This document shows, one piece after another, positions 33,613 to 60,007 of a stretch of DNA of 64,000 nucleotides. A model generated the notes under the pieces. That model made no database searches. It was not told where the DNA came from and saw only the letters and a program-made list of their open reading frames with translations. Position 1 is the stretch's first letter. Every line of letters starts with the position of its first letter. This DNA is from an uncultured delta proteobacterium (GTDB lineage Bacteria; Myxococcota_A; Polyangia; Polyangiales; Polyangiaceae): positions 21,989 to 85,988 of the forward strand of contig CAWEUH010000059.1 in NCBI GenBank assembly GCA_963811985.1, written 5' to 3'. A program made the translations under genes and the position numbers.

Positions 33613-33735
33613 GCGTTCCCGAAACGTGACTCAAGATCGACGAGTTTTTCGCTTTTCGCTCGCTAAGCTTGTGCCATAAGTCGTGGTGCGCTACCTCCAA
33701 GGCTCGTTGTTTTTCACCTAGCAGCGCGGTTATTC

Positions 33736-37057: not shown

Positions 37058-37362
37058 TCGGAAGCGCTCGAAGCAGCTGCTTGTTGGATGTGCCATTGCA
37101 TACAGGAAAGCCTCGCCGACCCTTGAACTGAGCGCAATCAGTTTCGCGTGCGCCCAAGTGCTGTCGAGATCTGCCATACAGAGCCTTGAGTGCTGGGCTC
37201 CACTCCGTTGAAACGCGCTCTAAGAATGACTACGACGAACGACACCAAACGTCGTGGGCCTGGGAGCCAACCACTGCGAAACGAGGAACATTCTTAGACA
37301 ACTATGGTAGCCTCAGGGTGCGCGTTTAGTCCAGTGAATCGTTCTTCGAAGCGGACGGTGGA

Positions 37363-42741: not shown

Positions 42742-43038
42742 CATCGACAAAGCACGGTCCGTGCCGACGCTGAGAGCCACCGGAAACGGCAGATTTTAGC
42801 CCTCCGCGGCGTGCGCACACGGGCCCGCACACTGCGCGCACAGGTATCAAGGTAGGGAGACTGATGGGCAAGCCAGAAGCCCGATGGGATCAACGCCGCT
42901 TGATCCCGCTCTGTTGATCACTCGCGGCGGCTTTGGGATAGCCATAAGCCTGACGGGGTGGACGTCCGGCAACTGCCCATTGGATCCTACCCACGGTTCG
43001 TCTATCCTCCCAGACCATCATGACGCTCAACCCAGAGC

Positions 43039-44093
43039 TTGTCTCCAAGCTCGCAGCCAATTCGCGATGCGCTGTGGGAACGTCCCCATGCATTCTTGCC
43101 TGTGGTGGGCTCCGGGTTGTCGCGGCCTTGGCTCAAGTCTTGGGTCGAACTACTGGACCTGCTTGCTGCCGAATTGCCGCCGGACATGCAGAAGGAAGTC
43201 GCGAGCGAGATGGCAGCGCAGCGCTATCTGAATGTCGCGTCTGTCCTTGAGAGTACGTGCCCGGTGGGCGTTCGCGAGTGTAGTCGATTATCCAGCAACT
43301 TTACCAGCGTCCGAAGAGGCTGCGGCCGGCAGTTTACGATGCGTTGGTAAAGTTGCCAATCGAGCAATACGTCACTACCAACTACGACCCTTGGCTCAAG
43401 TGCGCTCTGCCGATGGCGCCCTGGTAACACTCCGCGAATCTACGCGCCACGCTTCAGGGTAGCTTTCCCGATACGCTCGCAGGTACTGCGCCGCTCGTAC
43501 TCATGGTGCACGGTGACGCTGACGAGCCCAGTACTTGTGTACTGAGCATGCGTGGCTATCGCAATTTGCTTTACGGTGCGCAGGCCTGGCGGGAAGGCAT
43601 GAAGCAACTGGTTGGGCAGCGAAAGCTTCTGTTCTTTGGGCATTCGCTTGCGGATCCGGACCTGACTGCGCTGCTCGATGAATGGCAGGCCGTGTTTGCG
43701 CCGAATAGTGGCCCGCCTCGACACTACCTATTCGGCGCGGGCATCTCTATCGTACGGCGGGAGCTCTTGATGGATCGCGGCGTCGAGCCCATCGACCACA
43801 ACGACCACGCGCTGCTACCCGAGATACTCGAATACCTCGTCAAACCCCCTGCCGGTCACGTGGCGGCGGTTGCCAGCGGCGTGCAAGCGGATATCCAAAA
43901 GTACTTAGTTCGCCTGATTGACGACACTCGCTATATTGACATTCAAGGGATTGGCACGCGGCATGGCCAGGGCAAAACCGCGCTCAGCTACCCGATTGAG
44001 GAGCTTTACACGCCGCTTCGCACGCGCGCCGGGCGCGACAGCGCGGGCACGCCGGGGCTCGAGTGCTTGGCTGAGCCCGCGATGAACTCGTGA
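43039..44093 (+). pseudogene. SIR2-like (defence-type SIR2_2) domain gene split into three frame segments by a frameshift (~43284) and an in-frame TAA (43425-43427)
   Basis: Segment 1 (frame 1): AFLPVVGSGLSRPWLKSWVELLDLLA, the GxGxS NAD-site start. Segment 2 (frame 0): RLRPAVYDALVKLPIEQYVTTNYDPWLK-TAA. Segment 3 (frame 0): APLVLMVHGD...LLFFGHSLADPDLTALLDEW. Together these make one SIR2-family domain. Confidence 0.7.
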
Positions 44094-44105
44094 GTCTCAT
44101 CGGAC

Positions 44106-46251: not shown

Positions 46252-46340
46252 GCAAGGGGCGCAGGATTGCGCCGTGGAAGGACCAAGGGCCGTCGTCGGC
46301 GGCGCGACGAGGGACGAGGAGCGCAAGCAAACGACGGCGT
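46240..46340. repeat. ~100-bp imperfect direct repeat, copy 1; copy 2 is at 47049..47147. Together they flank the DUF433/DUF5615 module
   Basis: Shared blocks are GGGGCGCAGG(G)ATTGC(G/A)CC, ...TGGAAGGA..., ...GGCGGCG...GCGCGA(CGA)GGGACGAGG(A/G)GCG(C/T)AAGCA...GCGGCG. Each copy begins immediately after a stop codon (46251, 47036) and contains a short GC hairpin. Confidence 0.55.
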
Positions 46341-46437
46341 TGTTTGTGAGCAGTGAGCAGTGTGCAGGGGCAGCGCAAAAAGGGTTGCCATCCGCGTCGT
46401 GTTGCAGCGTGCCAGATAGCGGACTATCCTAGGGGTC

Positions 46438-46674
46438 ATGGCCTACTTGGTGTCGCGCATCTCGGTAGATCCGCAGATTTGCGGGGGGCAACCGTGCGTG
46501 CGCGGGTTACGAATTCCCGTATCGGTGGTGCTGAAGTACCTGGCGGCAGGAAAATCAACAGCGGATATCATCGACGAGCTTCCTGAACTCGAGGCAGAGG
46601 ATATCAACGATTGTCTCCGATACGCTGCCTGGCTGGCGTCAGGTCGCTCAATCGTACTGCCACCGGCTGCGTAA
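46438..46674 (+). CDS. DUF433-domain protein (antitoxin-like partner of DUF5615)
   Basis: DUF433 signature (PCVRGLRIPVSVVLKYLAAGKSTADII...NDCLRYAAW). Its stop overlaps the next start (TAATG). Confidence 0.8.
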   Translation: MAYLVSRISVDPQICGGQPCVRGLRIPVSVVLKYLAAGKSTADIIDELPELEAEDINDCLRYAAWLASGRSIVLPPAA

Positions 46675-47036
46675 TGAAGTACATCGCAGACGTAAACGTA
46701 TCTCGCAGGGTTGTTGAAAGCCTGAGAGCCTTGGGGTTTGACATAATCCGGGTGACGGAACTCCTTGATGCAAGGTCATCAGACCAAACGATTCTCTCGG
46801 AGGCAGCCAGACTCCACGCGGTTTTAATCAGTCACGACCACTTCGGTGCACTGCTTGCCATCACCGGCGCGACGTCACCTTCATTTGTCAATCTCCGTCT
46901 GTCCGAAGTTGACGCGACCCGGCTGGCGGCGAGCATTGAGCAGGTGCTCCGAGCAACGCATGAAGAGCTCTCTTCAGGCGCGGTGGTCACGTTGGACGAC
47001 AACGGCGTCCGTGTGCACCTCTTGCCATTAGCTTGA
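46674..47036 (+). CDS. DUF5615 (PIN-like) domain protein, toxin-like partner of DUF433
   Basis: MKYIADVNVSRRVVESLRALGFDIIRVTELL... is typical of DUF5615. The ATG overlaps the upstream stop by 1 nt. Confidence 0.8.
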   Translation: MKYIADVNVSRRVVESLRALGFDIIRVTELLDARSSDQTILSEAARLHAVLISHDHFGALLAITGATSPSFVNLRLSEVDATRLAASIEQVLRATHEELSSGAVVTLDDNGVRVHLLPLA

Positions 47037-47048
47037 TGCCACTCGACT

Positions 47049-47147
47049 GAAGTCAGGGGCGCAGGGATTGCACCCTGGAAGGAAGGGTCAGAAGCCGGCG
47101 GCGGTGGCGCGAGGGACGAGGGGCGTAAGCAGACTGCAGCGGCGCCA
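47049..47147. repeat. copy 2 of the ~100-bp direct repeat flanking the DUF433/DUF5615 module
   Basis: ~75-80% identical to 46240..46340. Starts right after the DUF5615 stop codon. Confidence 0.55.
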
Positions 47148-47494
47148 CGGATCCAGACTTTGAAGTTACACAACTGTGCTTTGAAGTTGCACAACCGTCC
47201 CGCGAAGCTTCGTTTTCCAATTCGGAAGCTCCGTTGCCGACTTTCGAAGCGCTGCACCGGGTTTTGAGTCGAAACCTCGCGAAAATCGGGTTCAGCAAGA
47301 GTGGAATCTGGCTCTTGGCGAATGGACCAGGCTATTTCTAGCGGGATCCAAGCGCTGGGCGCCGGGAAAGGACCTTCAAAACCCGGCGCGAAGGTTCTGT
47401 TGACTCGCACTCCCGTTCCAGCCCGGGGGGTGTCAGAATTTCCGTGTAATTTGACTTGGACAGACTACCGAACCTGACACCCCGAAACCGATTA

Positions 47495-48577
47495 ATGCGA
47501 TCACCGATTCCAATTCTCGGAGTGGTTTGTGCCACGGGATGGTCGTGTTCACGGGAACGCAATCCCACCCCAGCCTCGACGTTTTCGAGCACGACGAAGA
47601 CTCTCCCTTCCGCAACTGAACTGAGTAACCGCAAAGGTGATGCCGCAGCTCTCAGTGCAAGTGCTCGCCAGGCCTCGAGTGAAACGGACTTGGGCAAGAC
47701 GGCCGAGCCGAACGTATCTCACCTTCGCGCAGCACTTCTTGCCTCAGATACGAGGAAATTCGCTTCACTACTGACGTATCCAGTACAGGTGAACACGGGT
47801 TCACTCTGCACGGCATCCATCCCGAACGCAAAAGCATTCATCGCCAACTTCAATCAGATTGTTCGGGGCAAAGGGGAAACTGCACTCAGGTCAACGGACC
47901 CGGATTACTTCGCTACCTGGCAAGGCATTACTTTGGGAAATGGAAGCGTGTGGTTTGACGCGTTTGGCGACGGGGGAGTCACTCTATCCGTATTCAACTC
48001 CGACGCATGGCGCATTGGCGCCTTCCCCTGCGACGGAGAACCGGAGCAAGCCCCGCCAAAATGGATTGCCGGGACGTGGCGAGTTACCTCGGTCGCAATC
48101 CTTCAGGGTGGACAACTCATTCCGAAATCCCCAACCACTTGGATTGGCAAAAGCATCGACATTGACATGCGGACGCGGAAAGCCAACGTAAGTCTGCGAG
48201 AAGGCTCCGCCCGCGAGTGCTCAGTCGGCAGGCATGCTAGTCGCCGTTTCGAAAACGCCCGGGAAATGGGTGCTTCGTTTGCGGGTCTGTCTCTTGACAA
48301 GAGCAGTGGCTTTCTCGATCTTGAGTGCAGCGAGGCGGGTGAGCGTTACGTCGAACGCATAGACATAATCGACAAGACGGCACTAGCAGTTGTGGGTGAT
48401 GACAGGTATCTGCTGGTGCTCAGGCGCGAGGCGCGTACGGCAGCGAAGTCCATGGGGTTGTTGAAACCCGATGAACCGTGCGGACAATTCAATGATCAAT
48501 GCTCGATTGGTTACGTTTGTACAGCGTCGCGAAATGGCGAAGGCAAGCTACTCGAATCATGCCGCGAGATCGACTGA
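47495..48577 (+). CDS. hypothetical lipoprotein
   Basis: Lipobox MRSPIPILGVVCATGWSC. A 360-aa soluble domain with no recognised family. Confidence 0.55.
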   Translation: MRSPIPILGVVCATGWSCSRERNPTPASTFSSTTKTLPSATELSNRKGDAAALSASARQASSETDLGKTAEPNVSHLRAALLASDTRKFASLLTYPVQVNTGSLCTASIPNAKAFIANFNQIVRGKGETALRSTDPDYFATWQGITLGNGSVWFDAFGDGGVTLSVFNSDAWRIGAFPCDGEPEQAPPKWIAGTWRVTSVAILQGGQLIPKSPTTWIGKSIDIDMRTRKANVSLREGSARECSVGRHASRRFENAREMGASFAGLSLDKSSGFLDLECSEAGERYVERIDIIDKTALAVVGDDRYLLVLRREARTAAKSMGLLKPDEPCGQFNDQCSIGYVCTASRNGEGKLLESCREID

Positions 48578-48602
48578 AGAACTGAATCTGTCCAACTCCG
48601 AT

Positions 48603-49058
48603 CTATTTCTTTTCCAAGACAATGGTAAAGGCCGCCGGTTCGCCCTTCGGGGCGCCAAAACCGATTTGAAGTGTCCCAGTCTTGAGTCCGAACACCTTGC
48701 CAAGGGCGGCGCTATCTTGCACGGGTGCCCATTGCTTCCCGTCGGGACTTAAGAGCATGCCGGCTGAACCAAAGTACATATAGGTATCCTGCGAAAAGAC
48801 GAGATAGTCCTGTCCGGGCTGCAGTGCGATGGGGCCGAGGGAAGCGTGCAGGTTGACGGGAACCTTGTCTCCTTTTCTCAGTAACACGACGAAGGCCTTT
48901 GGACCCGTGGTCATGAGCTTACTCAGAGTTTCCTCCGGCGCGGCGTTGATTGTTGCGATGGTGAAATTCGGCACCTGCGATAGGTCCATGGTACGTACCG
49001 AAGCGCCGCACCCGGTGGTAAAGCCAATGATGAAGAGTAGAGTGAATGAAATACGCAT
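48603..49058 (-). CDS. hypothetical small lipoprotein
   Basis: Lipobox MRISFTLLFIIGFTTGC. 150 aa with beta-rich composition. Confidence 0.6.
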   Translation of the reverse strand: MRISFTLLFIIGFTTGCGASVRTMDLSQVPNFTIATINAAPEETLSKLMTTGPKAFVVLLRKGDKVPVNLHASLGPIALQPGQDYLVFSQDTYMYFGSAGMLLSPDGKQWAPVQDSAALGKVFGLKTGTLQIGFGAPKGEPAAFTIVLEKK

Positions 49059-49243
49059 GAATTATTGTTCCTCGTTCAGCCGGCGTCACGATCACGAGGG
49101 GCCGCCGGCTTGCGAATGTGGACTCTATCACAGACCTTGGCACGTGATGGCAAGCAGGGATCAACTGATGCGCAAGCGTTTCGGCGTCAGGAGTGCCTGC
49201 CCGCAGTCCTTGGCGCGCCCGAGCACGCCCTTGCACGCCGCCC

Positions 49244-51049
49244 CTACGGAAACTGTACCAGCACCGGGACCCAACTTTCCACCGTTGAATTGTCGCCCAG
49301 CTGTCCGTAAGTGTTGTCACCCCAACATTGCACACCGCCGTGGACCAGCGCGCAGGCGTGCGTATTGCCTGCTGCGACGGCTGTCACACCAGAGGACAGG
49401 CCTTGGACCTGCACCGGCACTGAACTGTTTACGTTGCTGTTGTCACCCAGCTGACCGTTGGTGTTGTAGCCCCAGCATTGCGCTCCGCCGTTGACTAGCG
49501 CGCACGTTTCGGCACTACAGGCGGCAATGGCTGTCACGCCAGAAGTCAGACCCCAAACTTGAGTCGGAACCATTCTGTTTATCGTTGAATAGTCGCCTAG
49601 CTGACCGAAATCGTTTAGCCCCCAGCATTGCAGATCACCATTCGCTATTGCGCACGCCACGAAATAGCCGACAGCGATGGCCGAGACACCTGACGTGAGG
49701 CCCTGGACCTGAACCGGTACCATACTGATGGTTGTACTGTTGTTTCCGAGTTGGCCCATGTCGTTGTCGCCCCAGCATTGGACGCCGCCGTTGACGATTG
49801 CGCAAGTATTGAAGTACCCGGCCGAGATCGCGGTTACGCCTGAGGTGAGACCTTGGACCTGGACTGGTACCATACTGCCGTGCGTACTGTTGATGCCGAG
49901 CACACCATAACCGTTAAAGCCCCAGCATTGAGCGCTGCCGTTCACCAGTGCACACGTATGGTAAGCACCCGCCGCCAAGGCCGTCACCCTCGAGGAGAGG
50001 CCTTCTGCCTGAACCGGCACCAAGCTGTCGAGCGTACTGTTATTGCCGAGCTGACCGTTACCGTTACCCCCCCAGCACTGCACTCCACCGTTTGCCAACG
50101 CGCACGAGTGCGTGTAGCCAGTAGCGACAGCCGTCACTGAGGAGAGGCCTTTTACCTGAACCGGCACCAAGCTGTCGAGTGTACTGTTGTTGCCGAGCTG
50201 ACCGTACTGATTGTACCCCCAACATTGCACGCCGGATTCGAGCAAGGCACAACTGTGGTCACCCCCGCAGGCCAGGGCAGCTACGCAGCGCGCCGTTGGT
50301 ACGTCAGACCAACTGCTCAGCGAGAGGGCGGGCTGGCAGCTCTGGCAGGGATTGTTCGGGTTGGCAGCTCCAGCAATGTAGGCGACCCCGGCAATCGTGC
50401 AGATGGGCGAAATCGCAGACGTACCCCCTGCGCTGGTGGTACCGCCAGCCAAAGTGGCGCCGCCTGTTGACGGCATCCCCGCCGTGCCCCCTACGGCCGC
50501 ACTACCTCCGGTCGTGCTGCCCGCGTTGCCCCCTGAAGGTGATGTTCCTCCCGTAGCCCCACCGGTTGATTGGGTGCTGCCATTAGGCTTGGTCCCACCC
50601 GTGGCGACCGTGCCTCCAGTCGTTAACGTTCCGCCTGTCGCAACAGTGCCTCCAGTCGCAGACGTTCCGCCTGTCGCAACCGTGCCTCCAGTTGCCGGCG
50701 TTCCGCCTGTGGGTCTGTTTCCACCTGTCGCAACAGTGCCGCCGGTCGCCGTCTTGCCGCCTGTGGGTCTGTTTCCACCTGTTGCAACAGTGCCGCCGGT
50801 CGCCGGCAAGCCGCCCAAGTTCGGGTACCCACCTGTGCTCGCAATACCACCGGTAGCCGAGCCGCCTGTGTTGCTGGTGCCCCACGTGGACACGGTTCCA
50901 CCCGTTGCCCGCAAGTCCCCGGTGCCTTCAGAACCTCCGACAGGTGCAACACCGCCCATGCCAAGGTCAAACACGTCAAGCTCAGAGCGTGCGCCGCAAG
51001 CCATTGACGACAGGATTGCACAGAGGAACCACAGTTTGTGCCTAAGCAT
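49244..51049 (-). CDS. secreted RCC1-repeat (seven-bladed beta-propeller) protein with an N-terminal Gly/Thr-rich linker
   Basis: Lipoprotein-like signal. Long ATGGT/TGG linker. At least 7 RCC1-like repeats (CALxNGGVQCWGxNxxGQLG...VPVQVQGL). Confidence 0.8.
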   Translation of the reverse strand: MLRHKLWFLCAILSSMACGARSELDVFDLGMGGVAPVGGSEGTGDLRATGGTVSTWGTSNTGGSATGGIASTGGYPNLGGLPATGGTVATGGNRPTGGKTATGGTVATGGNRPTGGTPATGGTVATGGTSATGGTVATGGTLTTGGTVATGGTKPNGSTQSTGGATGGTSPSGGNAGSTTGGSAAVGGTAGMPSTGGATLAGGTTSAGGTSAISPICTIAGVAYIAGAANPNNPCQSCQPALSLSSWSDVPTARCVAALACGGDHSCALLESGVQCWGYNQYGQLGNNSTLDSLVPVQVKGLSSVTAVATGYTHSCALANGGVQCWGGNGNGQLGNNSTLDSLVPVQAEGLSSRVTALAAGAYHTCALVNGSAQCWGFNGYGVLGINSTHGSMVPVQVQGLTSGVTAISAGYFNTCAIVNGGVQCWGDNDMGQLGNNSTTISMVPVQVQGLTSGVSAIAVGYFVACAIANGDLQCWGLNDFGQLGDYSTINRMVPTQVWGLTSGVTAIAACSAETCALVNGGAQCWGYNTNGQLGDNSNVNSSVPVQVQGLSSGVTAVAAGNTHACALVHGGVQCWGDNTYGQLGDNSTVESWVPVLVQFP

Positions 51050-51068
51050 GGGACTGCCCGATTATACA

Positions 51069-51182
51069 CCACACAACCCTCCACGCCCGCCCCGCACCAC
51101 TCCCCGCGCGACCCTTTGACCCTGCCCCCTGCACACTGCACCTCGATCTCCAGTCGCGCAGGGAACCTGCAGTGCCGTCGCG
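51069..51182. repeat. copy 1 of a ~115-bp C-rich repeat (CACCACAC(A/G)ACCCTCC...TGCACACTGCAC...AGTCGCGCAG...TGCAGTGCCGT); copy 2 is at 55557..55668
   Basis: ~75% identity over ~115 bp by manual alignment. Copy 1 lies just upstream of the RCC1 gene start. Copy 2 lies just downstream of the beta-helix gene stop. Confidence 0.45.
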
Positions 51183-51541
51183 CCAAGAACGAGCGATGGG
51201 AAGAGTCGCCGCGGCGGGGGCCCGTGGGACTTGGCAAGCGTCATGGCTGCTTCTCGCCGAGCTGACCCGAGTTCGAGAACTCAAACAGATAAGGTGGCTG
51301 CTTTCGCCGGAAACCCGGAGGCGTTGGAAGCGAGAGGAAGGTAGAACTTGCGCTCGTCGGTGACTTACTGGGGCTGCAAGCTGTGCGCAGTCCGTTAGGC
51401 GCACCAGCGAGACCGTGTCGTTGATGCTCTGTAGAGGAGATGAGGCGCACGGACCTACGCCATCCGCTGATAATTCGGCCAGATGTCGGCCTCGTGCCCA
51501 CAGACCCTTGCCATCAGAAACCATTATGGTACTTTTCTGGT

Positions 51542-51814
51542 GTGACTCGCACAGCCCTCGCCCAGGACAGTACCGTTGCTCGGACAATTCGCTTCCCCTC
51601 TGGTCTTCGCGAGCGTATCGCAAGCGATGCCGACCGGTGTGGGCGTAGTTTCGAAGGTCAGGTGTTGGCTCTGCTACGGCGTCACTACGGAGAAGATGTC
51701 GATATAGCGCCAAGCCCGCAGGATGTTCTGGCGCTGGCGACTGCGAGTCTTGCTGATATTCCGGCCGCAGATGCCCGGACACTTTCCCGCCGACTCAAGG
51801 AAGTTAAAAAGTAG
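51542..51814 (+). CDS. vapB: ribbon-helix-helix (Arc/MetJ-type) antitoxin, VapB-like
   Basis: RTIRFPSGLRERIASDADRCGRSFEGQVLALLRRHYG is a canonical RHH N-terminus. It directly precedes the PIN toxin gene. The start is likely GTG at 51542. Confidence 0.7.
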   Translation: MTRTALAQDSTVARTIRFPSGLRERIASDADRCGRSFEGQVLALLRRHYGEDVDIAPSPQDVLALATASLADIPAADARTLSRRLKEVKK

Positions 51815-51823
51815 GCCGCCGTA

Positions 51824-52291
51824 ATGACCATCGGACCCGTTCTTCTGGATACCGATACGTTGTCGGAATTGAGTCGTGCAAACCCCGACGTGGCCGTTCA
51901 CGCTCGAGCGTACTTGCTCGAGTTCGGCCGACTTACCATCACTTCGATCACCGTTTTCGAGCGACTGCGTGGCTATCGCCAAGCATTGCGTGCGGGGAAG
52001 CCGTATCATAAGCAGATGCAAGCGTTTGAGGCGCTCGTCCAAACTTGCATTGTCCTGCCGTTTGACGAAGATGCCGCCGATGTGGCCTCAACTATCTGGT
52101 CCGCGTGCTCACGAAGCCAACGTCAGCGTTTAGGCGACATCCTTATTGCCTCTGTGGCCCTCGCACGGCAACTCCCCTTGGTCACGCGCAACCGGCGAGA
52201 CTTCGAAGCTCTGGGCACGGCATCCGATGTGGATCTTCGTCTGCTGGATTGGACGATCGCCGCCAAAACAACGGCGAAGCGAATTCAGTGA
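51824..52291 (+). CDS. vapC: PIN-domain toxin VapC
   Basis: Conserved PIN acidic residues (LLDTDTLSE..., ...FDEDAADV..., ...GDILIASVAL...TRNRRDFE). Confidence 0.85.
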   Translation: MTIGPVLLDTDTLSELSRANPDVAVHARAYLLEFGRLTITSITVFERLRGYRQALRAGKPYHKQMQAFEALVQTCIVLPFDEDAADVASTIWSACSRSQRQRLGDILIASVALARQLPLVTRNRRDFEALGTASDVDLRLLDWTIAAKTTAKRIQ

Positions 52292-52303
52292 GGGCGCCAT
52301 AAA

Positions 52304-52403
52304 GCGCTTGCAGTTGGCGGCTAGGCCTTCTTATGGGTCTGTCTCAGCGGCGGCAGTGGCTACGCCACAACTATACTGCCGCCGCTGGTTGCTGCGTTAT
52401 GAT
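52304..52403. repeat. copy A of a ~100-bp conserved element (second copy at 54947..55046), containing a 12-bp perfect inverted repeat AGCGGCGGCAGT / ACTGCCGCCGCT
   Basis: Shared blocks are CGCTTGCAGTTGGCGGCT, a ~41-nt variable segment of equal length, GGCAGTGGCT.CGC.ACAA.T.TACTGCCGCCGC and TGCGTTATGATG. In copy B the stem carries a U-G-compatible change. Confidence 0.5.
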
Positions 52404-52547
52404 GATATCCACTCGACAACCGAGGATCGCTACTTTGCGCTGGGACGCACGAACCCAGGGCGGCAATCGAGGTCAGAGTGTAGCGTGCAGTGGCGTCACC
52501 CGGTTCACTTCTGCAACGCCAAATTGGTCACCGTCAGGCTCGCCAAT

Positions 52548-52790
52548 TCACGGCTGCAACGTCGAATTGGTCACCGTAGCGCTCAGTGCATTGATCCCAA
52601 ATGCCGACCCAAGGTTCGTCACGCTCCCCTGTTGCAACTGAGTCCAATGTCCGCCCGTATTGCCGGTAATCGTCGTATCCCGAATCGTAATGGTGCCGGT
52701 CCAGTCGTTGCTGGTCATGAACACGCCGCCGCCGAAGGCGTTGGTGCCCGCAGCATTTCCGGTGCTTTGGTGCCCCCAGTGTGTGGGAGT
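52548..52790 (-). pseudogene. 3'-terminal fragment paralogous to the C-terminus of the beta-helix protein gene at 55674..57269
   Basis: It encodes ...SNDWTGTITIRDTTITGNTGGHWTQLQQGSVTNLGSAFGINALSATVTNSTLQP, near-identical to the last ~65 aa of the 55674 gene. It has no upstream N-terminal or central region. Confidence 0.6.
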
Positions 52791-53086
52791 TGATTGACGG
52801 CCGCGGGTGCTCGCTTCGCTGCGCGCCCGCGCGGCCCCCCAAATCTGTGCTCGCTCCGCTTTGCTCCGCTGCGCAGATGGGGGAGCCTCACCAACTTGGC
52901 GGCAATCTGCGAGTTTCGACCGGTCGAGCCGCATGTACCGATCTGCCACGCGAGCGGAGTTCTTCACGTGTGATTGTGCGAGGCAACTCGAGACCCAGCA
53001 AATCAGCCGGTCTCCGCTTGGCAGCGCAACCATCGCGCCATGCGCCGGCGAGGCACGATGGTCCCGGCTAGCGCCTGTCACGCTGC

Positions 53087-53545
53087 TTGCGCAATGGGTC
53101 GCGAAGCCCAGCTGATTTGCTGGGCCCCGGAGGTGCCAAGTCAGCTCAATCACGCAAACATTCGAAGACTCAAGCGCTCCTAGCCGAGCGTGCCTACGTT
53201 TTGCGGTGCAACCCTACCCGCTCGGAGCAGGTTCTCTGGCAAGAACTTCGCGCTAATCGGTTTGGAATTGCCTTTCGCCGGCAAGTGCCAATCGGCGGCA
53301 AGTACATTGCAGACTTCCTAGCCCCGTCAATCCGGCTGGTCATGGAAGTGGATGGCGGCGTTCATCGTCAGCGGCGTATTGCTGACGCCAGGCGTGATAG
53401 GAATATGAGGCGCCTGGGGTATTATGTCCTTCGTTTGGATGCGGAGGTTGTGCTCCGGAATTTGCCCGTTGCGGTCGAAATTGTTCGGGTGGCTGCCGCA
53501 GGGGCGGCACGGTCAGAACGGCTCGGCAATTGCCCGTCGCCGTGA
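53087..53545 (+). CDS. DUF559 domain protein (Vsr-like endonuclease fold)
   Basis: SEQVLWQELRANRFGIAFRRQVPIGGKYIADFLAPSIRLVMEVDGGVHRQ... is the DUF559 signature. Confidence 0.7.
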   Translation: MRNGSRSPADLLGPGGAKSAQSRKHSKTQALLAERAYVLRCNPTRSEQVLWQELRANRFGIAFRRQVPIGGKYIADFLAPSIRLVMEVDGGVHRQRRIADARRDRNMRRLGYYVLRLDAEVVLRNLPVAVEIVRVAAAGAARSERLGNCPSP

Positions 53546-53853
53546 CACAGCTCTACGGCATGAGGTCTTCGCGACTCGATGCGAACCACGCTCCCAACTG
53601 TGGCAGTTATTGCCTTATGCGGACCTGGATTTATCGAGATATGCCGCGATTGGGATCGGAGAATGTGCGAAGACATGGCACGGTGCGCGCGGCCAGTATT
53701 CGGATATACAGACCGGGGATTCTTGGGATAGGCTGATCGGGTCAATTACCAGTTGGGCAGACCGACGACTTGGACACAGTTCGACCTAGCACAACAGGGC
53801 CTAAGATTGCAATCTCGCAAGGCCAAACGCAGAGGAAACTGAAAGGGCTTTCG

Positions 53854-54212
53854 ATGTCAATCGGCGATAACGCTAAGGGCTTCCACGATGTGACCATAGT
53901 TGCAAGTAACGTTGACGAACTCCGTCGTTTCTACGGCGAGCTAGGATTCAGGCAAGTCGTCGATCGCGGTAATGACCTCGCCGTATTCCTCGTAGGTGCG
54001 AATGAGCTCGCTATTCATACTTCACCTACACGACCTACCAAGGCACTCGTGCTTTCTGTCCTCGTAGATGATCTGGAACCCATTCAACGCCAAGCCGCAG
54101 AACTTCGGGATCCAATTCGAAGGTCCCGCACCAACGCGACCTGGACTAATTGGAATCGCACTGCTCGATCCCAACGGAAACAAAATTGAGTTCCTGAAGC
54201 CCGACGCTAATT
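53854..54212 (+). CDS. VOC-family (glyoxalase/bleomycin-resistance fold) protein with an apparent 1-nt frameshift near 54103-54108
   Basis: The N-terminus is FHDVTIVASNVDELRRFYGELGF. The expected C-terminal motif ...GIALLDPNGNKIEFLKPDAN* is encoded in the +1 frame and ends at 54212. Confidence 0.65.
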
Positions 54213-54264
54213 GAATCCGCGTCCACGTGAGCCGCTTCATTGGGCGAACGATGGGACCAGCGCT

Positions 54265-54552
54265 CTATGCCGCAGAGTCGATGTTCTCGCGCACGATTCG
54301 CGGGTGACGTGCGGCGATGCGTAGCAAGGCTAGTCCAGGACCGTCCGGCTTCACCCTGTCCTGCTCCCAGTTGCGCAGGGTGTGAACACTGATACCGAGC
54401 GCCTCCGCGAATTGCTCCTGTGTCAGACAAATAAATCGTCGCAGCGCGGCTACATCGCCTGGCTCGAGGTTGCCCGCAATAATTCGCCTTCGTTGTGCTC
54501 GAGTCAGGGCTCGACTGAGTTCTTCTCGAGTTAGTTCTTCCCGGTCGTTCAT
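54265..54552 (-). CDS. brnA: BrnA-type antitoxin (HTH)
   Basis: MNDREELTREEL...LEPGDVAALRRFICLTQEQFAEALGISVHTLRNWEQDRVKPDGPGLALLRIAARHP. Overlaps the brnT stop by 4 nt. Confidence 0.8.
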   Translation of the reverse strand: MNDREELTREELSRALTRAQRRRIIAGNLEPGDVAALRRFICLTQEQFAEALGISVHTLRNWEQDRVKPDGPGLALLRIAARHPRIVRENIDSAA

Positions 54553-54839
54553 CGTAGACTCTCCACGTATTCGGCGTACAATTTCTCTTCGGTTTTGGTG
54601 GCCCACCAAGCGCTGATGATCCGTACGAGGTCGTCCGCGCGCTCCGTCCAGACAACCAATACCAACCCGCGCCTTATCGGTCCGATGGATTTGAACCTAT
54701 CCTCTGTCTCGCTGTGGTTGACGTCGTACACTTCCAAAACGGGTGCATCCGTGGTGAAAAGCTCGCTCGCTTCCTCGAAGGACACGTCGTGGAGGCGCCT
54801 GTTCCGCTCGGACTTCTCTGGGTCCCATTCGAAACGCAC
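54549..54839 (-). CDS. brnT: BrnT-type ribonuclease toxin (DUF497)
   Basis: MRFEWDPEKSERNRRLHDVSFEEASELF... is the DUF497/BrnT signature. Toxin-first BrnTA gene order. Confidence 0.85.
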   Translation of the reverse strand: MRFEWDPEKSERNRRLHDVSFEEASELFTTDAPVLEVYDVNHSETEDRFKSIGPIRRGLVLVVWTERADDLVRIISAWWATKTEEKLYAEYVESLR

Positions 54840-54946
54840 GCGTCATTATAAGCTATTAGCTTACATCGTCAAGTCACGCGGTGGACCGTGCCTACGGTTC
54901 CGGGAGAGCGCTCTTCCGAAGCTATGGCGCAGAGCCGCCCAACAAA

Positions 54947-55046
54947 CGCTTGCAGTTGGCGGCTTTGCCTGCTGGGGGGTCGTGGTCGTCGGTGGCAGTG
55001 GCTTCGCAACAATTGTACTGCCGCCGCCTGCTCTTGCGTTATGATG
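54947..55046. repeat. copy B of the ~100-bp conserved element (see 52304..52403)
   Basis: ~75% identical to copy A, with a conserved stem-loop and the conserved terminal TGCGTTATGATG. Confidence 0.5.
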
Positions 55047-55114
55047 GGTTTGGCCCGACTTGATGGGCCGCAACTGAGGCGCAAAGTCGTTATGCCTCTT
55101 TGCTGCCCCGGCCG

Positions 55115-55402
55115 TCACCGCTTACCCTCCACCAACCGCACCAAGGTGCCCGTGATGCGATTGACCCGATTGAGCGTCGAGCCGTCAAGCGCATGAACGT
55201 AACCAAAGGCCTGAGCCACCTCCAAACAGGAAAAACTCTCCCGCATGGAGCCAAGAGCGGAGTGGTAGCGGGCTGTGCGCAGCTCACCGCGGGAATACAT
55301 GCCTTCGGCCAAGTTCAAGGCGACGCTGCTGGAAGCGCGGCGCAGTTGCCGCCCGAGATCACGGTCACGACGCTCAACTTGAGCCAGCAAGGGCCGTAGC
55401 AC
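55115..55402 (-). CDS. four-helix-bundle protein (TIGR02436-like, '23S rRNA intervening-sequence protein' family)
   Basis: RQLRRASSSVALNLAEGMYSRGELRTARYHSALGSMRESFSCLEVAQAFGYV is characteristic of this family. Confidence 0.75.
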   Translation of the reverse strand: MLRPLLAQVERRDRDLGRQLRRASSSVALNLAEGMYSRGELRTARYHSALGSMRESFSCLEVAQAFGYVHALDGSTLNRVNRITGTLVRLVEGKR

Positions 55403-55467
55403 GCTGGTAGACTGGACAACGACGAGCAGAGGCAGGTCGCAAACTCGAAGTGACGACGAGAATTGTG

Positions 55468-55635
55468 GTCAGCGTGCAGAGTGCAGAGTGCAGCGTCAGG
55501 GTGGCACGGGTTGGGTGTTGTGGGGCGGGCATGGGGTGGAACGCGGGGCGTGACTCACCACACGACCCTCCCCACACAAGCCGCGCCACCCCCCACACGA
55601 CCCTCTGACGTTGCACACTGCACTCTGCACGCTGA
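55468..55635. repeat. large imperfect palindrome: 31-bp arms (55468-55498 and 55605-55635, 29/31 complementary) around a ~106-bp G-rich/C-rich spacer
   Basis: The left arm is TCAGCGTGCAGAGTGCAGAGTGCAGCGTCAG. The reverse complement of the right arm is TCAGCGTGCAGAGTGCAGTGTGCAACGTCAG. The right arm belongs to the 55557..55668 repeat copy. Confidence 0.5.
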
Positions 55636-55668
55636 TCTCAGTCGCGCAGCGACTTTGCAGTGCCGTTA
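55557..55668. repeat. copy 2 of the C-rich ~115-bp repeat (see 51069..51182)
   Basis: Manual alignment gives ~75% identity. Confidence 0.45.
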
Positions 55669-55673
55669 CCCGG

Positions 55674-57269
55674 CTACTTCTGCAATGTCGAGTTAACCAC
55701 GGTGGCACTTAGCGCATTGATCCCAAACGCGCTTCCAAGGTTCGTGACGCTGCCCTGTTGCAGTTGAGTCCAAGATCCGCCGGTGTTGCCCGTGATCGTC
55801 GTATCCCGAATCGTGATCGTGCCGGTCCAGTCGTTACTCGTCATGAACACGCCGCCGCCAAAGGCGTTGGTGCCCGCGGCGTTGCCAGTAATTGTGTCGC
55901 CACAAAGAATGATGTTTGTTGAGGAGCCGCCGTCTTGGTAAATGGCGCCGCCGTTGCCTCCGGAGCCGATTTCATTTTGGCCGTTGTTGATGACGGAGCA
56001 TTGCGTTGCGTCGTCGTTGTTGGCGTCATGCCCGGTGGCTTTGTTGTTTTGAAAGACACTGTTGTAGATGTCAAGTTCGGCGAAGAGGCCCCCGAGGGCA
56101 CCGGCGTTGGCGGCTTGGTTGCTGGTGAACGTGCTGCCGACAATGAGGGCACCGTGCTTGCTGCCAAGGATGTAGATGGCGCCGCCACCCGTGTCGGGCC
56201 CGAGAAGCGCGGCCTGGTTGTTCGAAAATGTGCAGTCGATGACCGTGAGGTTGCCATCGCGCATGTAAAGGGCTCCGCCCTCTCCGTCGTCGTAGCCTTG
56301 GGAGCACGGTGCGGGCGCCGTGGGAATCGCCTCTGTGGGCGTGGTCTTGCCGTTGACAAGCGTCAGATGTTGCAGGGTGACGCGTGTCTCGGTCGCCATG
56401 AAGTTGGCGCTGTTGTAGTTTAGAATCTGAACGCTCCCGCCGCCGTCGAGTGTGATCAAGTTGCCGCCGTCAATCACCGTGTTCTTGGTCGTCGGCAGAT
56501 TCATCGTCGCCGTTATTGCGATGGTTTTTGGTGCCGTGCCGCAGTTGAATGTGATGATGCCGCCCTTGGTCACGGCCGTGTTGAGCGAGCTGAATGTGCA
56601 ACTGTCCGCGGTTCCCGTACCAATCACAGACGTTGGGCTGGATACGTCAACCAGGGCGGCGCCTGCCGGCAAGGCAATCGAGCATTGGCCGGGGCTTGAA
56701 GAACCCGCCGTGCCGGTTGCGCCCCCTGTCGAAGACTTGCCTCCGGTCGTTTGAGTGCCGCCCGTCGCGTTCGCGCCCGCCGCCGCGGACTTGCCTCCGG
56801 TCGCTTGCGTGCCGCCCGTTGTATTCGCGCCCCCCGTCGCGGACTTGCCTCCAGTCGCATTCGCTCCGCCCGTCGATGGCTTGCCGCCCGCGGCATTAGC
56901 GCCACCGGTGCCAGACTTGGAGCCGCCGGTGGCATTAGCGCCGCCGGTGCCTGCGCCGCCTAGGCCTGCCTGGCCTCCAGTTGCCGCGTTGCCACCTGTG
57001 TCAGCGATCGAAGTCGTTGACGAGCTGCCACCCGTCGCTTCAGCGCCCCCTGTCGTACCTGACGAAGTCCCGCCCGTGTCGCCTGTGCTCGCGCCGCCCG
57101 TGTCACTGCCCACTGCGCTTGTGCCGCCCACTGCGCTTGTGCCGCCCACTGCGCTCGTTCCGCCCGCTGCGCCGGTGCCGGCGGGTGAGCCAGAACAGCC
57201 AGCCGTCAAGAGCAGTACTGCGAACGATACGGACCCGAGCTTTGGATGGACGGAGAGTGTGCTTTGCAT
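55674..57269 (-). CDS. secreted lipoprotein with a Gly/Thr/Ala-rich linker and a right-handed parallel beta-helix (pectate-lyase-like) domain
   Basis: Lipobox ...AVLLLTAGC. TGG/ATGG linker. Repeated NxxxGGxxxxxG and TITGN beta-helix rungs. Its C-terminus is duplicated at 52548..52790. Confidence 0.7.
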   Translation of the reverse strand: MQSTLSVHPKLGSVSFAVLLLTAGCSGSPAGTGAAGGTSAVGGTSAVGGTSAVGSDTGGASTGDTGGTSSGTTGGAEATGGSSSTTSIADTGGNAATGGQAGLGGAGTGGANATGGSKSGTGGANAAGGKPSTGGANATGGKSATGGANTTGGTQATGGKSAAAGANATGGTQTTGGKSSTGGATGTAGSSSPGQCSIALPAGAALVDVSSPTSVIGTGTADSCTFSSLNTAVTKGGIITFNCGTAPKTIAITATMNLPTTKNTVIDGGNLITLDGGGSVQILNYNSANFMATETRVTLQHLTLVNGKTTPTEAIPTAPAPCSQGYDDGEGGALYMRDGNLTVIDCTFSNNQAALLGPDTGGGAIYILGSKHGALIVGSTFTSNQAANAGALGGLFAELDIYNSVFQNNKATGHDANNDDATQCSVINNGQNEIGSGGNGGAIYQDGGSSTNIILCGDTITGNAAGTNAFGGGVFMTSNDWTGTITIRDTTITGNTGGSWTQLQQGSVTNLGSAFGINALSATVVNSTLQK

Positions 57270-57610
57270 GGTTCTCAAATGACCCCCCATCCGAGCAGAC
57301 GGCTCACTCAGGGCGCGTTCAGCCTGAAAAGCCCCGCGTTTCCGTGCCGCCGTGCCAAAAAGCAACCGGGGGCGCGCCACTGAAAACGATGTCGCACCGA
57401 GCCAGCACTTGGAATCGCTGGCATGGCCGGATGCGAATCGACGAGGTCGCGTCGATTTGGCGATCGGGCCTGCAGGGTTGCGGTTGATCGAATCCGTTGC
57501 GTCGCCACACGTGGCACTGACGTAATCGTTGATGCGGCGTTGAAGTATCGTATGTTCGCGCCGTGGCTAGCGACCCTAACGCACGAGACTTGTCGATCTC
57601 GAGACGAGCT

Positions 57611-57638
57611 ATGGATACGCGGTCGTTTGGGTTGGGGC
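57611..57638. repeat. second copy of the hairpin GGTCGTTTGGG-N6-CCCAAACGACC
   Basis: See 33585..33612. Intergenic, upstream of the Cys-rich lipoprotein gene. Confidence 0.55.
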
Positions 57639-57757
57639 CCAAACGACCAACGCAATCAAGAAAATCCCGGATCAACGTGCAGTCGCGCGAAATCCTTGGC
57701 AGTTTGGCACCTGTTTCGGGCACGCAGGCGGGTACAGGCTCAGACACAGCACGCACG

Positions 57758-58288
57758 GTCCGATTCAGACCGATCGTCGCGGTCGCGCTGATGGCTGCGA
57801 TCGGCGCGCTCGGGTTTGGTGGCTGCAGCAGCCACTCGGGGCCCTATTGTCAGGGTGGGCAGTACTGCGCCTGTGCCAACGGCGCCGAATGCTACCTTGG
57901 CTGCGAAGCAGACGGCTGCAACCTCGAGTGTTCGAACACGGCGCATGCTTGCGGAACCGTGTGCGGCAACCAATGCACCGCCGTGTGCCATGACACGAAT
58001 GATTGCAGCGCCTCGTGCGGCGATGGCTGTAACCTCGATTGCCACAATACGGCCTCGTGCGGTGCCCAGTGCGGCGCCAATTGCACGTACAGTTGCCACG
58101 ACACGACTCGCTGCGGTGTGCGCGTCGGCCCCGAGAGCACCGTCACCTGCGATCACTTGCCCACGTGCATCGTCGAATGCGCGGGCACCTGTACCGTGAC
58201 GTGCACGAACGTCGATAGTTGCTCGGTAACCTGCGCGTCCGGGGTCGCCGCCTCGGACAATGGTAATGGTACGTATGTGTGTAGCTAG
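57758..58288 (+). CDS. cysteine-rich repeat lipoprotein (Myxococcus-type cysteine-rich repeat)
   Basis: Lipobox ALGFGGCSS, then ~10 tandem repeats of C-x3-C-x3-C-x5-C type (CEADGCNLECSNTAHACGTVCGNQCTAVCHDTNDCSASCGDGC...). Confidence 0.65.
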   Translation, partial: VRFRPIVAVALMAAIGALGFGGCSSHSGPYCQGGQYCACANGAECYLGCEADGCNLECSNTAHACGTVCGNQCTAVCHDTNDCSASCGDGCNLDCHNTASCGAQCGANCTYSCHDTTRCGVRVGPESTVTCDHLPTCIVECAGTCTVTCTNVDSCSVTCASGVAASDNGNGTYVCS

Positions 58289-58334
58289 GAATTCTTTTTG
58301 GCCCCCGCCCTTGGATTTGCTTGGTCGCGTTGGC

Positions 58335-58943
58335 ATGGCGCTCGCAATCGCCCTCTTCGCAGTTTCTGTGACGCGAACCGGACTTGCGCAGGGAATCATC
58401 CGAAACCCGGGGGATCACATCGATTACGTGGCGGAACTCGAACCACACTTCTTGCTCAGCCCCTTTGACCCGCCCGGCGACACGAGTGGAACTGGCTTTG
58501 GCCTCGGCCTGCGCGCGACGATTCCGATCGTCAAAAATGGCTTCATCAGCAGCATCAACAACTCTATCGGCATCACATTCGGGCTCGATTGGTTGCGCTA
58601 CTCGGGGCAAGACGTCACCTACGGCCCGTGCGTGCAATGGGTTCCTGGCCTCAACGGCACATCCATTTGCACGCAAGTTGGCAGCCCGTACGGCGGCTCC
58701 GCGGACTACTTCTATTTGCCGGTTGCCATGCAGTGGAACTTCTGGTTGCACCCGCAATTCAGCGTGTTCGGCGAACCGGGCCTCGTCATTTACGACAGAC
58801 GCCCCAGGGACTACGGGAACTCGAACGTCGGGCTCATACCTATGCTCGACCTCGGCGGCCGCTGGCATTTCGCAAAACCCGCCGCCCTCGTGTTTCGCTT
58901 CGGCTACCCGACATTCTCACTCGGGGTTTCGTTCTTTTTGTAG
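58335..58943 (+). CDS. hypothetical outer-membrane beta-barrel-like protein
   Basis: Signal peptide MALAIALFAVSVTRTGLAQG. Alternating hydrophobic beta-strand pattern. C-terminal ...FSLGVSFFL. Confidence 0.6.
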   Translation: MALAIALFAVSVTRTGLAQGIIRNPGDHIDYVAELEPHFLLSPFDPPGDTSGTGFGLGLRATIPIVKNGFISSINNSIGITFGLDWLRYSGQDVTYGPCVQWVPGLNGTSICTQVGSPYGGSADYFYLPVAMQWNFWLHPQFSVFGEPGLVIYDRRPRDYGNSNVGLIPMLDLGGRWHFAKPAALVFRFGYPTFSLGVSFFL

Positions 58944-59042
58944 TGCACTCACGGAACACCCTTTGGCGTCGAGAGTTGCGTGACGGAATTTCGCCGGGTG
59001 TGCCGACTCCTGCCCGGCCGCGAAAGCGCCGGTTGACAGAGT

Positions 59043-59357
59043 ATGTGTTTGAGCACATACTTCATCCAAGTGGCAACTGTCATCTACGGTGATTTCGAGT
59101 GGGACGAGGAAAAAGCCGTCCCAAACTTGGCGAAACACGGCGTAGCGTTCGAGGAAGCGACTACGGCAGTCGTGGATCCTAATGCTGTGTTTCTGTCAAA
59201 CGATGCCGACGCGGAGGGTCGCCTTATGGCAATTGGAATGTCTCAACGACTAAATGCTCTGCTTGTTGTCTTTGTCGAGCGCGGCACACGCGATCGCCTA
59301 ATAAGTGCCCGCTATGCGACTCGAGAGGAGGAGATTTTGTATGAACAAGGCAATTAA
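59043..59357 (+). CDS. second BrnT-like toxin (DUF497)
   Basis: GDFEWDEEKAVPNLAKHGVAFEEATTAVVDPNAVF... is the DUF497 signature. Confidence 0.75.
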   Translation: MCLSTYFIQVATVIYGDFEWDEEKAVPNLAKHGVAFEEATTAVVDPNAVFLSNDADAEGRLMAIGMSQRLNALLVVFVERGTRDRLISARYATREEEILYEQGN

Positions 59358-59662
59358 GAGAGGAGAGCCGAGCAACCAATCGCTACTGGAGATGCCGGAA
59401 CTGGACTTGACAAAGGCGAGAATACTAGGCCGAGGCTTGAAGAAGGATAGGCGTCTACCTTTGCGCGCCATGCGTGAGGCAGTTGGAGCAACTCAAGAGG
59501 ATATTGCCGACAAATGGGGATGGATCAGAGCGAGATTTCACGGATTGAGCAACGAGACGACCTGAAGGTCTCTACATTGCGTCGATACGCGCAGGCACTG
59601 GGCGCTGAGATTGAAGTGACCGCCGTACTCGGCACCGGGCGCCGAATTCGGTTGGAGATTTA
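59341..59662 (+). CDS. second BrnA-like HTH antitoxin, with a 1-nt frameshift (A-run AAAA to AAA) near 59510
   Basis: The N-terminal part is MNKAIKRGEPSNQ...EDIADKW. The HTH C-terminus (MGMDQSEISRIEQRDDLKVSTLRRYAQALGAEIEVTAVL) continues in the -1 frame up to the stop at 59660-59662. Confidence 0.65.
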
Positions 59663-59689
59663 GCGGGATTGTCGCAATGGATTCGGCTT

Positions 59690-60007
59690 TCAAACCTTCC
59701 GGGGCTTTGAAGCTTCGGTCCCACCAGGTCTCGCTTTGCCCGGAACGGATAGAATTTCTACATTGTACTTCACCAATCGTTGCTTCATCACCCTTTGCGA
59801 TAGCGGATTGTTGTCAACGAGGATGAAACTACGATTGAGCTTTGCACATGCCTCGCCGACCGTGCCGCTGCCGGCGAAGAAGTCGAGGACCGTCTCGCCG
59901 GGGTTGCTGTGCACTCGCACGATGCGTTCGATGATGCCGAGCGGTTTCTGCGTTGGGTAACCGGTCTTCTCTTTGCCCGTCGGGCTCACGATCGTGTGCC
60001 ACCACAT
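59690..60007 (-). pseudogene. C-terminal fragment of a beta-class N6-adenine/N4-cytosine DNA methyltransferase; the N-terminal catalytic half (DPPY) is missing and the break coincides with the low-GC junction
   Basis: TQKPLGIIERIVRVHSNPGETVLDFFAGSGTVGEA is the C-terminal AdoMet-binding region of PF01555-type methyltransferases. The ORF begins abruptly at 60007, where GC content collapses. Confidence 0.7.

Follow-up and report, generated by a model that had tools for sequence, protein, structure and literature searches.

A putative decayed integron-type cassette array among toxin-antitoxin and lipoprotein genes in an uncultured member of the Polyangiaceae

Introduction

How does a stretch of about 13 kb come to hold four toxin-antitoxin (TA) pairs, further small genes, lipoprotein genes, a duplicated gene end and several repeat families? 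We address this question for positions 46438-59662 of a 64,000-nucleotide stretch (hereafter the window) of contig CAWEUH010000059.1, from an uncultured member of the Polyangiaceae. An earlier note on this DNA had seen here a defence or addiction island, bounded by a SIR2/NACHT locus on one side and a low-GC phage remnant on the other. We propose instead, with a probability of roughly 60%, that the core of the region, at about 51.4-55.1 kb, is a decayed integron-type cassette array resembling a cluster of attC sites lacking integron-integrase (CALIN). In the region as a whole, small selfish genes would have been packed in among lineage-specific lipoprotein genes. The locus is also marked by decay, and may have been shaped by recombination involving a hairpin element, J, and duplicated gene ends.

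attC-like sites and the arrays they form

The several repeat families reported in the earlier note were recovered, and one of them proved to be a pair of attC-like sites, here called R3. R3a (52292-52468) and R3b (54934-55101) are both on the forward strand, and score 103.9 and 146.2 bits, respectively, with a covariance model built from R3, which finds no other copy in the window. R3b carries the boxes R'' GCCCAAC and R' GTTATGC, and the R boxes of R3a are degenerate (CCATAAA ... CCAGGGC). A weak match of the model at 49164-49252, which has neither AAC nor GTT, was rejected as an attC site.

The structure of R3 was derived from an alignment of 11 copies from the window and related contigs, in which the element measures 168-177 nt, starts with RYYYAAC and finishes with GTTRRRY. 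The R'' box varies among copies (GCCCAAC, GTCTAAC, GTCCAAC, GCATAAC and GGCCAAC), and so does R', whose variants include GTTGGGC, GTTAGAC, GTTGGAC and GTTATGC. Three long helices account for 39 pairs. Pairing holds in 91.5% of the alignment cells concerned, and in 35-47% of those in controls with a slid partner. Compensatory changes affect 21 of the 39 pairs, and none of 500 shuffles attained the observed value. Two bases are bulged on the AAC arm, in columns 19 and 26 of the alignment (positions 16 and 23 if R'' begins at position 1). This is the same arm on which the extrahelical bases of attC top strands have been described (PMC5027507).

The most specific evidence comes from the boundaries between neighbouring copies. 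If cassettes are exchanged by crossover at G|TT, the R'' box of a cassette's attC should be complementary to the TTRRRY that starts the same cassette, that is, to the R' box of the preceding site. In the arrays of related contigs, five of nine adjacent pairs show exact complementarity between the R'' of the later site and the R' of the earlier one (permutation p = 0.0007), and R'' complements the R' of its own site in just one of 10 sites. Within the window, four of the six positions still obey this rule in the decayed R3a. As the R'' boxes complement the preceding R' boxes in the way G|TT crossover predicts, we read the R3 elements as putative attC sites, on the feature tests made here.

The distribution of copies is also array-like. 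Six co-oriented R3 copies lie within about 12 kb in the metagenome-assembled genome (MAG) GCA_003154095.1 and five in the 9.7-kb contig L177, with one each in contigs L168 and L001. Every copy on a given contig is on the same strand, and open reading frames (ORFs) finish just ahead of R3. CALIN elements have been defined as clusters of attC sites lacking an integron-integrase, with a rule on spacing and strand (PMC4889954); R3a and R3b, which lie on one strand at a distance of 2.47 kb, accord with that rule, one of the two being degenerate.

An alternative is that R3 is an intergenic repeat resembling repetitive extragenic palindromes (REPs) or miniature inverted-repeat transposable elements (MITEs), or else a multicopy structured small RNA, and that the region is merely flexible and rich in TA genes and repeats. 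Unrelated repeats (R1, PAL and J, described below) do occur in the same region, R3 is longer than a typical attC site, and neither an integrase nor an Rfam family for comparison was found. However, the RYYYAAC and GTTRRRY boxes and above all the match between R'' and the preceding R', and possibly the two bulges, are specific predictions of the integron reading, and the shared strand of all copies on a contig and the ORFs ending just before R3 likewise speak against an ordinary repeat. We therefore regard this alternative as unlikely, while granting it real weight.

Cassette cargo and its decay

The gene content of the interval delimited by R3a and R3b, and of the DNA just before R3a, fits an integron-type array. 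A VapBC-type cassette (51440-52291, forward strand) precedes R3a. It consists of a small antitoxin gene (probable start 51575, end 51814) followed, 9 nt further on, by a PIN toxin gene (51824-52291), a layout expected of one operon, and the stop codon of the toxin lies 3 nt before R3a. The toxin has a clear PIN match (E = 8.5e-10). The earlier note had called this an RHH-PIN pair; the PIN half of that claim stands, while the ribbon-helix-helix (RHH) half has only a sub-threshold Arc/RHH match (E = 0.011).

Three further units lie between the two sites. The first is a DUF559 unit (52943-53545, forward strand), recognized by alignment with four other copies, in which a leader of about 200 nt is followed by the DUF559 gene (53087-53545). 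The endonuclease-fold protein announced by the earlier note is genuine (Pfam E = 2.9e-24), though its canonical start is mutated: GGAGG-N5-ATG is kept in homologues, and at 53139 of the window the ATG has become AAG. The leader contains a 14-bp inverted repeat (52989-53017 and 53101-53129). The second unit is a VOC/glyoxalase gene (53854-54214, forward strand), which the earlier note had missed. It has a frameshift near 54100, and the reconstructed protein matches Glyoxalase over positions 2-121 of 121 (5.3e-8). The third is a TA pair (54265-54839) on the reverse strand, inverted relative to the attC-like sites, in which a BrnT toxin (54549-54839, E = 3.2e-20) is accompanied by a helix-turn-helix (HTH) antitoxin resembling MqsA and NadS (54265-54609).

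As the two attC-like sites delimit them, VapBC, BrnT/HTH, DUF559 and VOC would therefore be cassette cargo of a CALIN-like remnant. Among the functions encoded by cassettes, TA systems, VOC proteins, acetyltransferases and methylases are the most frequent, and Myxococcota are already on record as carrying integron attC sites (PMC9668308). TA cassettes are also enriched in chromosomal integrons, which they stabilize (PMC13108822).

Some observations on the DUF559 unit stand apart from this argument. Its leader (52943-53138) is about 82-85% conserved, one copy shows a G-U-compatible change in the inverted repeat, and Rfam has no match for it; it may be a structured 5' untranslated region. Downstream of DUF559, a conserved non-coding stretch, K (about 240 nt, with 92-94% identity among copies), is found in contigs L172 (4308-4546), L165 (6450-6694) and L168 (1338-1581). 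It is partial in L001 (14178-14264) and absent from the window copy, and has a sharp 3' end with a different right flank in each copy. A literature search found no mobile-element precedent for DUF559.

Two more TA pairs lie outside the interval. A predicted DUF433/DUF5615 (PIN-like) pair occupies 46438-46674 and 46674-47036 on the forward strand. Pfam bears out its identification in the earlier note (E = 1.8e-24 for DUF433 and 1.3e-16 for DUF5615/PIN_10), the two genes are adjacent and overlap, as this predicted TA type requires, and a homologous pair lies within the cassette array of L177. At the other end of the region, a second BrnT gene (59043-59357, E = 1.5e-21) is followed on the same forward strand by an antitoxin gene of the XRE-type HTH class (59386-59663) with a frameshift near 59514; the reconstructed antitoxin matches HTH_31 (3e-11). 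BrnT is thus present twice, as the earlier note had it. Its partners are in both cases HTH proteins and not RHH-type BrnA, so these are BrnT-HTH pairs.

The DUF433/DUF5615 pair is bracketed by direct repeats of about 80 nt (R1, 46255-46340 and 47055-47141; 76% identity), each directly after a stop codon and with a GGCGCA...TGCGCC hairpin inside. We considered R1 as a candidate attC site and rejected it, as the attC signature was not found. The second BrnT appears intact, and the frameshift in its antitoxin has an AAA/GGGG context. A dead toxin, cross-neutralization and a sequencing error are all possibilities, and, judging from the genes as read, this TA pair is probably inactive or cross-neutralized.

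Just beyond R3b, a TIGR02436/23S_rRNA_IVP gene (55115-55402, reverse strand) encodes the four-helix-bundle protein that the earlier note had recognized. The profile search shows it to be truncated, about the first 20 profile positions (helix 1) being absent.

The history suggested by these features would run as follows. The bottom strands of R3 would have been folded and recombined at G|TT by an integron integrase, whose gene lies in another part of the genome or was formerly present, and cassettes would thereby have been inserted and excised. Two co-oriented attC-like sites are left, one intact and one degenerate, with VapBC before R3a, and DUF559, VOC and the inverted BrnT/HTH pair before R3b. 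Promoter-bearing TA cassettes might act as addiction modules that penalize loss of the array, and the two TA pairs outside the interval, together with the SIR2/NACHT and methylase remnants described below, would be further accessory debris, with no detectable attC site. As one attC-like site is dead and many genes are frameshifted or truncated, the system appears to be decaying in the window.

Lipoprotein genes interleaved with the small genes

The small genes alternate with genes of another character. Five proteins carry lipobox signal peptides, read from their translations, which agrees with the lipoproteins described in the earlier note. That note had also spoken of paralogous secreted beta-helix proteins. 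The 601-aa protein encoded at 49244-51049 (reverse strand) is, however, an RCC1 propeller (E = 1.8e-66), a lipoprotein that has just a Gly/Thr-rich linker in common with the beta-helix protein. Two other lipoproteins, of 360 aa (47495-48577, forward strand) and 151 aa (48603-49058, reverse strand), have no Pfam match. For the 360-aa protein, no relative was found in 185,579 species-representative genomes, and its best homologue among 5.8 billion proteins, apart from one database protein with 100% identity to it, is at most 54% identical.

The beta-helix lipoprotein gene (55674-57380, reverse strand) is full length and belongs to a large Polyangia family. It has 1529 homologues, with 59-86% identity among the matches listed, mostly across the C-terminal 60% or so, and a weak Chlam_PMP match; the three of 120 listed homologues whose source gives an organism name are all from Polyangiaceae or Polyangia MAGs. 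Four unrelated gene neighbourhoods, without synteny, were seen around close homologues of the gene. Downstream of the gene lies a palindromic repeat, PAL (55464-55640), with partial copies at 51067-51178 and 46357-46388, and PAL is also found downstream of homologous gene ends in L002, L001 and L172. Finally, a Cys-rich lipoprotein gene and an outer membrane protein (OMP) beta-barrel gene (57563-58943, forward strand) are kept together at more than 50 loci in Polyangia metagenomes. This is the only gene pair conserved in other Polyangia contigs, and it is conserved as a pair only.

Upstream of the Cys-rich lipoprotein gene, positions 57588-57650 form a 63-nt inverted repeat (79% identity) with 33583-33645, which lies upstream of the GH3 gene. 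In L172 (5490-8260), from MAG GCA_003154095.1, a gene for a 736-aa RCC1 lipoprotein, 45% identical to that of the window, lies inverted within a cassette whose boundaries conform fully to the attC rule, so that cassettes in this lineage can evidently carry large host-like genes.

One acquired block or a mosaic

Both flanks named in the earlier note are present. On the left, a SIR2_2 gene and a NACHT/FGE-sulfatase gene (42884-46251, forward strand; Pfam matches) are pseudogenes, their three-frame translation showing several frameshifts and in-frame stops. On the right, low-GC repetitive ORFs resembling tail fibres (60188-62498, reverse strand) contain internal repeats and have weak matches to virion-structural PHROGs, in keeping with a phage remnant. 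Between the latter and the second BrnT pair lies the methyltransferase remnant that the earlier note had reported, namely the C-terminus of an N4/N6 DNA methyltransferase (59690-60007, reverse strand; N6_N4_Mtase profile positions 144-213 of 221). The data give no support to a single block bounded at 46438 and 59662.

The GC content of the window is about 59%. It is uniform across the region (0.55-0.64), indistinguishable from that of the core part of the window, and falls to 0.45-0.48 in a block at 60-63 kb. In that core part (17-36 kb), the housekeeping genes for TldD, PdxA, Sua5, peptide deformylase, a type II/IV secretion ATPase and GH3 are intact. These core genes give full-length profile matches, frameshifts and truncations being found only within 42.8-64 kb. 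PADLOC recognized no complete defence system, just the SIR2 fragment, with weak ThsA/LmuA-like matches (E of 1e-6 to 1e-7), and the methylase C-terminus.

These data bear on the view of the earlier note, in which a defence or addiction island was gained as one horizontally transferred block reaching from the SIR2/NACHT locus to the phage remnant. TA genes are indeed dense, SIR2, NACHT and methylase fragments are present, and relatives lack synteny. The earlier note had named synteny conserved across related genomes as what would speak against it; no relative is syntenic, and those compared include no very close genome. Yet the PADLOC systems are incomplete, the candidate defence genes are pseudogenes, the GC content is that of the core and conserved host-type gene pairs are interleaved, all of which makes a single block improbable. 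What survives of the earlier description is an accessory region rich in addiction modules; the defence island does not. Its GC content is not distinct, and host-type genes are interleaved with small genes: the region is put together as a mosaic and was not acquired as a single block.

A recurrent module of gene end and hairpin element

The duplicated gene end pointed out in the earlier note is real: positions 52554-52778 are 84% identical to 55680-55904, within the beta-helix gene, and the differences are mostly synonymous. The orphan copy (52548-52778, reverse strand) comprises 77 codons, of a type ending in LQP and a stop, with frame and stop intact. Repeat comparison revealed a third, small copy (52504-52541, reverse strand), made up of the last 11 codons and the stop and ending in LQK. 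On its 5' side, the orphan gene end is joined to J (52763-52866, reverse strand), a discrete element of about 92-100 nt that forms a hairpin and has copies in relatives.

Rather than being an accident of this locus, the duplication is part of a recurrent module in which J and the last 140-316 nt of a beta-helix gene are followed, on the opposite strand, by DUF559 behind its leader. The module of J and gene end is found in five other contigs (L001, L165/L172, L168, L176 and L177). In L165/L172, three copies lie within 18 kb, without a full-length beta-helix gene. The window and L165 have in common the order attC, gene end, J, DUF559, and the window and L001 the succession attC, four-helix-bundle gene, palindrome, gene end. 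TA pairs occur between J and the DUF559 leader in L172 (Unstab_antitox) and L177 (DUF433/DUF5615). In addition, L177 carries a group II intron reverse transcriptase gene (2496-3896; RVT_1 and GIIM) directly beside the gene end at 4122-4441, inside the cassette array.

Copies of J are 82-95% identical and have differing flanks, and the adjoining coding DNA is 74-85% identical. Two variants of J are distinguished by a compensatory stem change. J has no match in Rfam or IMG/VR, and no diverged copies were detected in about 2.3 Mb of retrieved loci. A protein-coding role was considered for J and rejected, as the variants differ by an indel and the substitutions are non-synonymous.

The junctions between J and the gene lie at -316, -229 and -140, and at -185 in L176, where the core of J is deleted; orientation and reading frame are constant wherever J is present. 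All orphan ends retain an open frame and stop, with a pairwise ratio of non-synonymous to synonymous substitution rates (dN/dS) of 0.02-0.1 at dS of 0.35-1.5. As no conserved start or ORF was found upstream of them, they are probably untranslated. In L001, the orphan end and the full-length gene next to it share 99.4% identity over 316 nt; the repeat reaches the stop codon and goes no further, and a RelE-like/Unstab_antitox pair and J lie between the two gene-end copies. The orphan end of L176 resembles the full-length gene of L002, a contig of the same metagenome sample.

Nested displaced ends downstream of an intact gene, a repeat that stops exactly at the stop codon and cargo genes between the copies are also what would be left as attL/attR scars by integrative elements that use a site-specific integrase to enter the beta-helix gene at its 3' end and carry a replacement end. 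Such elements are an improbable source of the pattern: there is no integrase in or near any copy, the junction of J with the gene falls at four positions instead of at one core, and several copies have no full-length gene nearby. With low confidence, we suggest that exchange with full-length beta-helix genes resident in the genome, through homologous recombination or gene conversion, may spread and homogenize the module, which would explain both the synonymous-only divergence and the flanking duplications.

More speculatively, J and the gene end might constitute a second, integrase-independent layer of mobility, or else footprints of the making of new cassettes, a possibility for which the reverse transcriptase gene beside one module in L177 is of note. 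We regard this as a tentative and rather unlikely idea. In the first case, cargo such as TA pairs and DUF559 would travel with a copy, 140-316 nt long, of the highly conserved 3' end of a multicopy lipoprotein gene as a portable homology arm, capped by the structured J with its precise end. Insertion would take place behind any paralogue or inside its last 100 codons, leaving the paralogue intact and pushing earlier ends downstream. The module could in this way bear on the recruitment and rearrangement of host genes by cassette arrays, and on the origin of cassettes.

An assembly artefact, that is, a chimeric MAG contig joined at repeats and with sequencing errors for frameshifts, is very improbable. 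The contig does come from a metagenome, repeats of this family lie at contig ends in L177 and L172, and one frameshift has the AAA/GGGG context noted above. However, both module orders are seen independently in other assemblies, the damage includes substitutions (ATG to AAG, nonsense codons and changes in R boxes) and not indels alone, and the core genes of the same contig are intact.

Further features of the window

Accessory DNA reaches left to about 36 kb. A gene encoding an SPFH/Band_7 protein of 702 aa sits there (37363-39471, forward strand), in DNA of lower local GC (0.546-0.586), next to an ORF of 353 aa without family (36116-37177, reverse strand). Homologues of the SPFH protein, mostly 60-80% identical over most of its length (one match 55%), come from MAGs that belong to many phyla, with Syntrophales, Ignavibacteriota, Bacteroidota, Spirochaetota, Nitrospirota, Acidobacteriota and Bacillota among the groups represented. 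Such a pattern points to a highly constrained and horizontally spreading gene. A genome scan with the protein returned cross-phylum homologues only, and no close relative usable for synteny.

The left end of the window holds another accessory patch, with an IS5-like DDE transposase (2850-4439), a DruA-like (Druantia) fragment (11985-12875) and an IS66 transposase (12878-14527). At the right edge, a class-V aminotransferase gene (63320-63999, reverse strand) is split across two overlapping ORFs and is probably another pseudogene. Neither the window nor the related contigs contain a tRNA or tmRNA integration site. Rfam returned no match in the window at gathering thresholds, and only chance-level microRNA matches in the related contigs (E up to 1).

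Weighing the cassette-array reading

Several points count against a decayed integron-type array. One is that neither the window nor any related contig shows an integrase; in the window, the search for Phage_integrase matches covered scanned ORFs of at least 200 aa and six-frame translations of the larger unannotated gaps. The sites themselves are unusual. attC sites are usually 57-141 nt long, a range that R3 exceeds, and at position 16 the bulged base would, on the presumed bottom strand, be a C in place of the canonical G, by comparison with the numbering of attCaadA7. Furthermore, there are just two sites in the window, of which R3a has lost both AAC and GTT, and the membership of R3 among attC sites is judged by the feature tests made here. 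As regards the cargo, two of the four TA pairs have no attC-like site nearby, several putative cassettes are large (2-5 kb), multigene or inverted, and some of the frameshifts may be sequencing errors in short homopolymers. Lastly, the recombination account of the gene ends leaves the precise 3' end of J and the frame-keeping junctions unexplained.

The cassette-array reading, set at the probability given at the outset, would nevertheless turn a list of TA genes into a mechanistic statement, namely that a Polyangia lineage stores and shuffles small addiction and nuclease genes as integron-type cassettes. As for annotation, half of the "defence" genes in the region are dead.

Comparison with known systems

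The region recalls diversity-generating retroelements in that an Avd-family four-helix-bundle gene adjoins a surface-protein gene at the 3' end of the latter, of which there is a near-repeat 3 kb away. A remnant of such an element, in which the gene ends would be template and variable repeats, nevertheless has next to no probability. The mismatches between the gene ends are synonymous third-position changes in both directions and show no specificity for adenine, and the scanned ORFs of the window yielded no reverse transcriptase.

The gene-end module resembles the orphan C-terminal modules found downstream of rhs and cdiA genes and the duplicated 3'-conserved segment of complex class 1 integrons with ISCR1. 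In these systems too, partial end copies flank cargo downstream of an intact copy, in a pattern explicable by recombination via a shared segment. In contrast to them, the ends described here encode the same, non-variable C-terminus, neither Rhs/CDI toxin domains nor an IS91-type transposase are present, and the fragment is in every case capped by one specific element, the 92-nt J.

In TA-stabilized arrays, for which "cassette loss killing" has been described (Richard et al. 2024, PMC13108822), TA cassettes that bear promoters lie in either orientation among mostly silent cassettes, and the array itself has this in common with them. It differs from them in being known from sequence alone, and in that one of its four TA pairs has a broken antitoxin.

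The closest resemblance is to sedentary chromosomal integrons and CALIN elements, such as the Vibrio cholerae superintegron with its V. cholerae repeats (VCR). The sites are co-oriented, conserved in structure and variable in sequence, and resemble one another within the lineage; they have RYYYAAC and GTTRRRY boxes and G|TT cassette boundaries, and bulged bases that may correspond to the extrahelical bases of attC. The cargo comprises TA pairs, VOC and small genes of no assigned family, and, as in CALIN elements, no integrase lies beside the cluster. The differences are the length of 168-177 nt, the branched inner region and the non-canonical position 16 of R3, the Polyangia host, the many large, multigene or inverted cassettes, and the fact that two sites are left in the window, one of them dead. 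Integron arrays are thus a known kind of element, to which a little-studied Polyangia host and unusually long sites are added here. If the reading is correct, these long sites and the large, often inverted cassettes would extend the known architecture of attC arrays, and the covariance model built from R3 can serve to find more of them.

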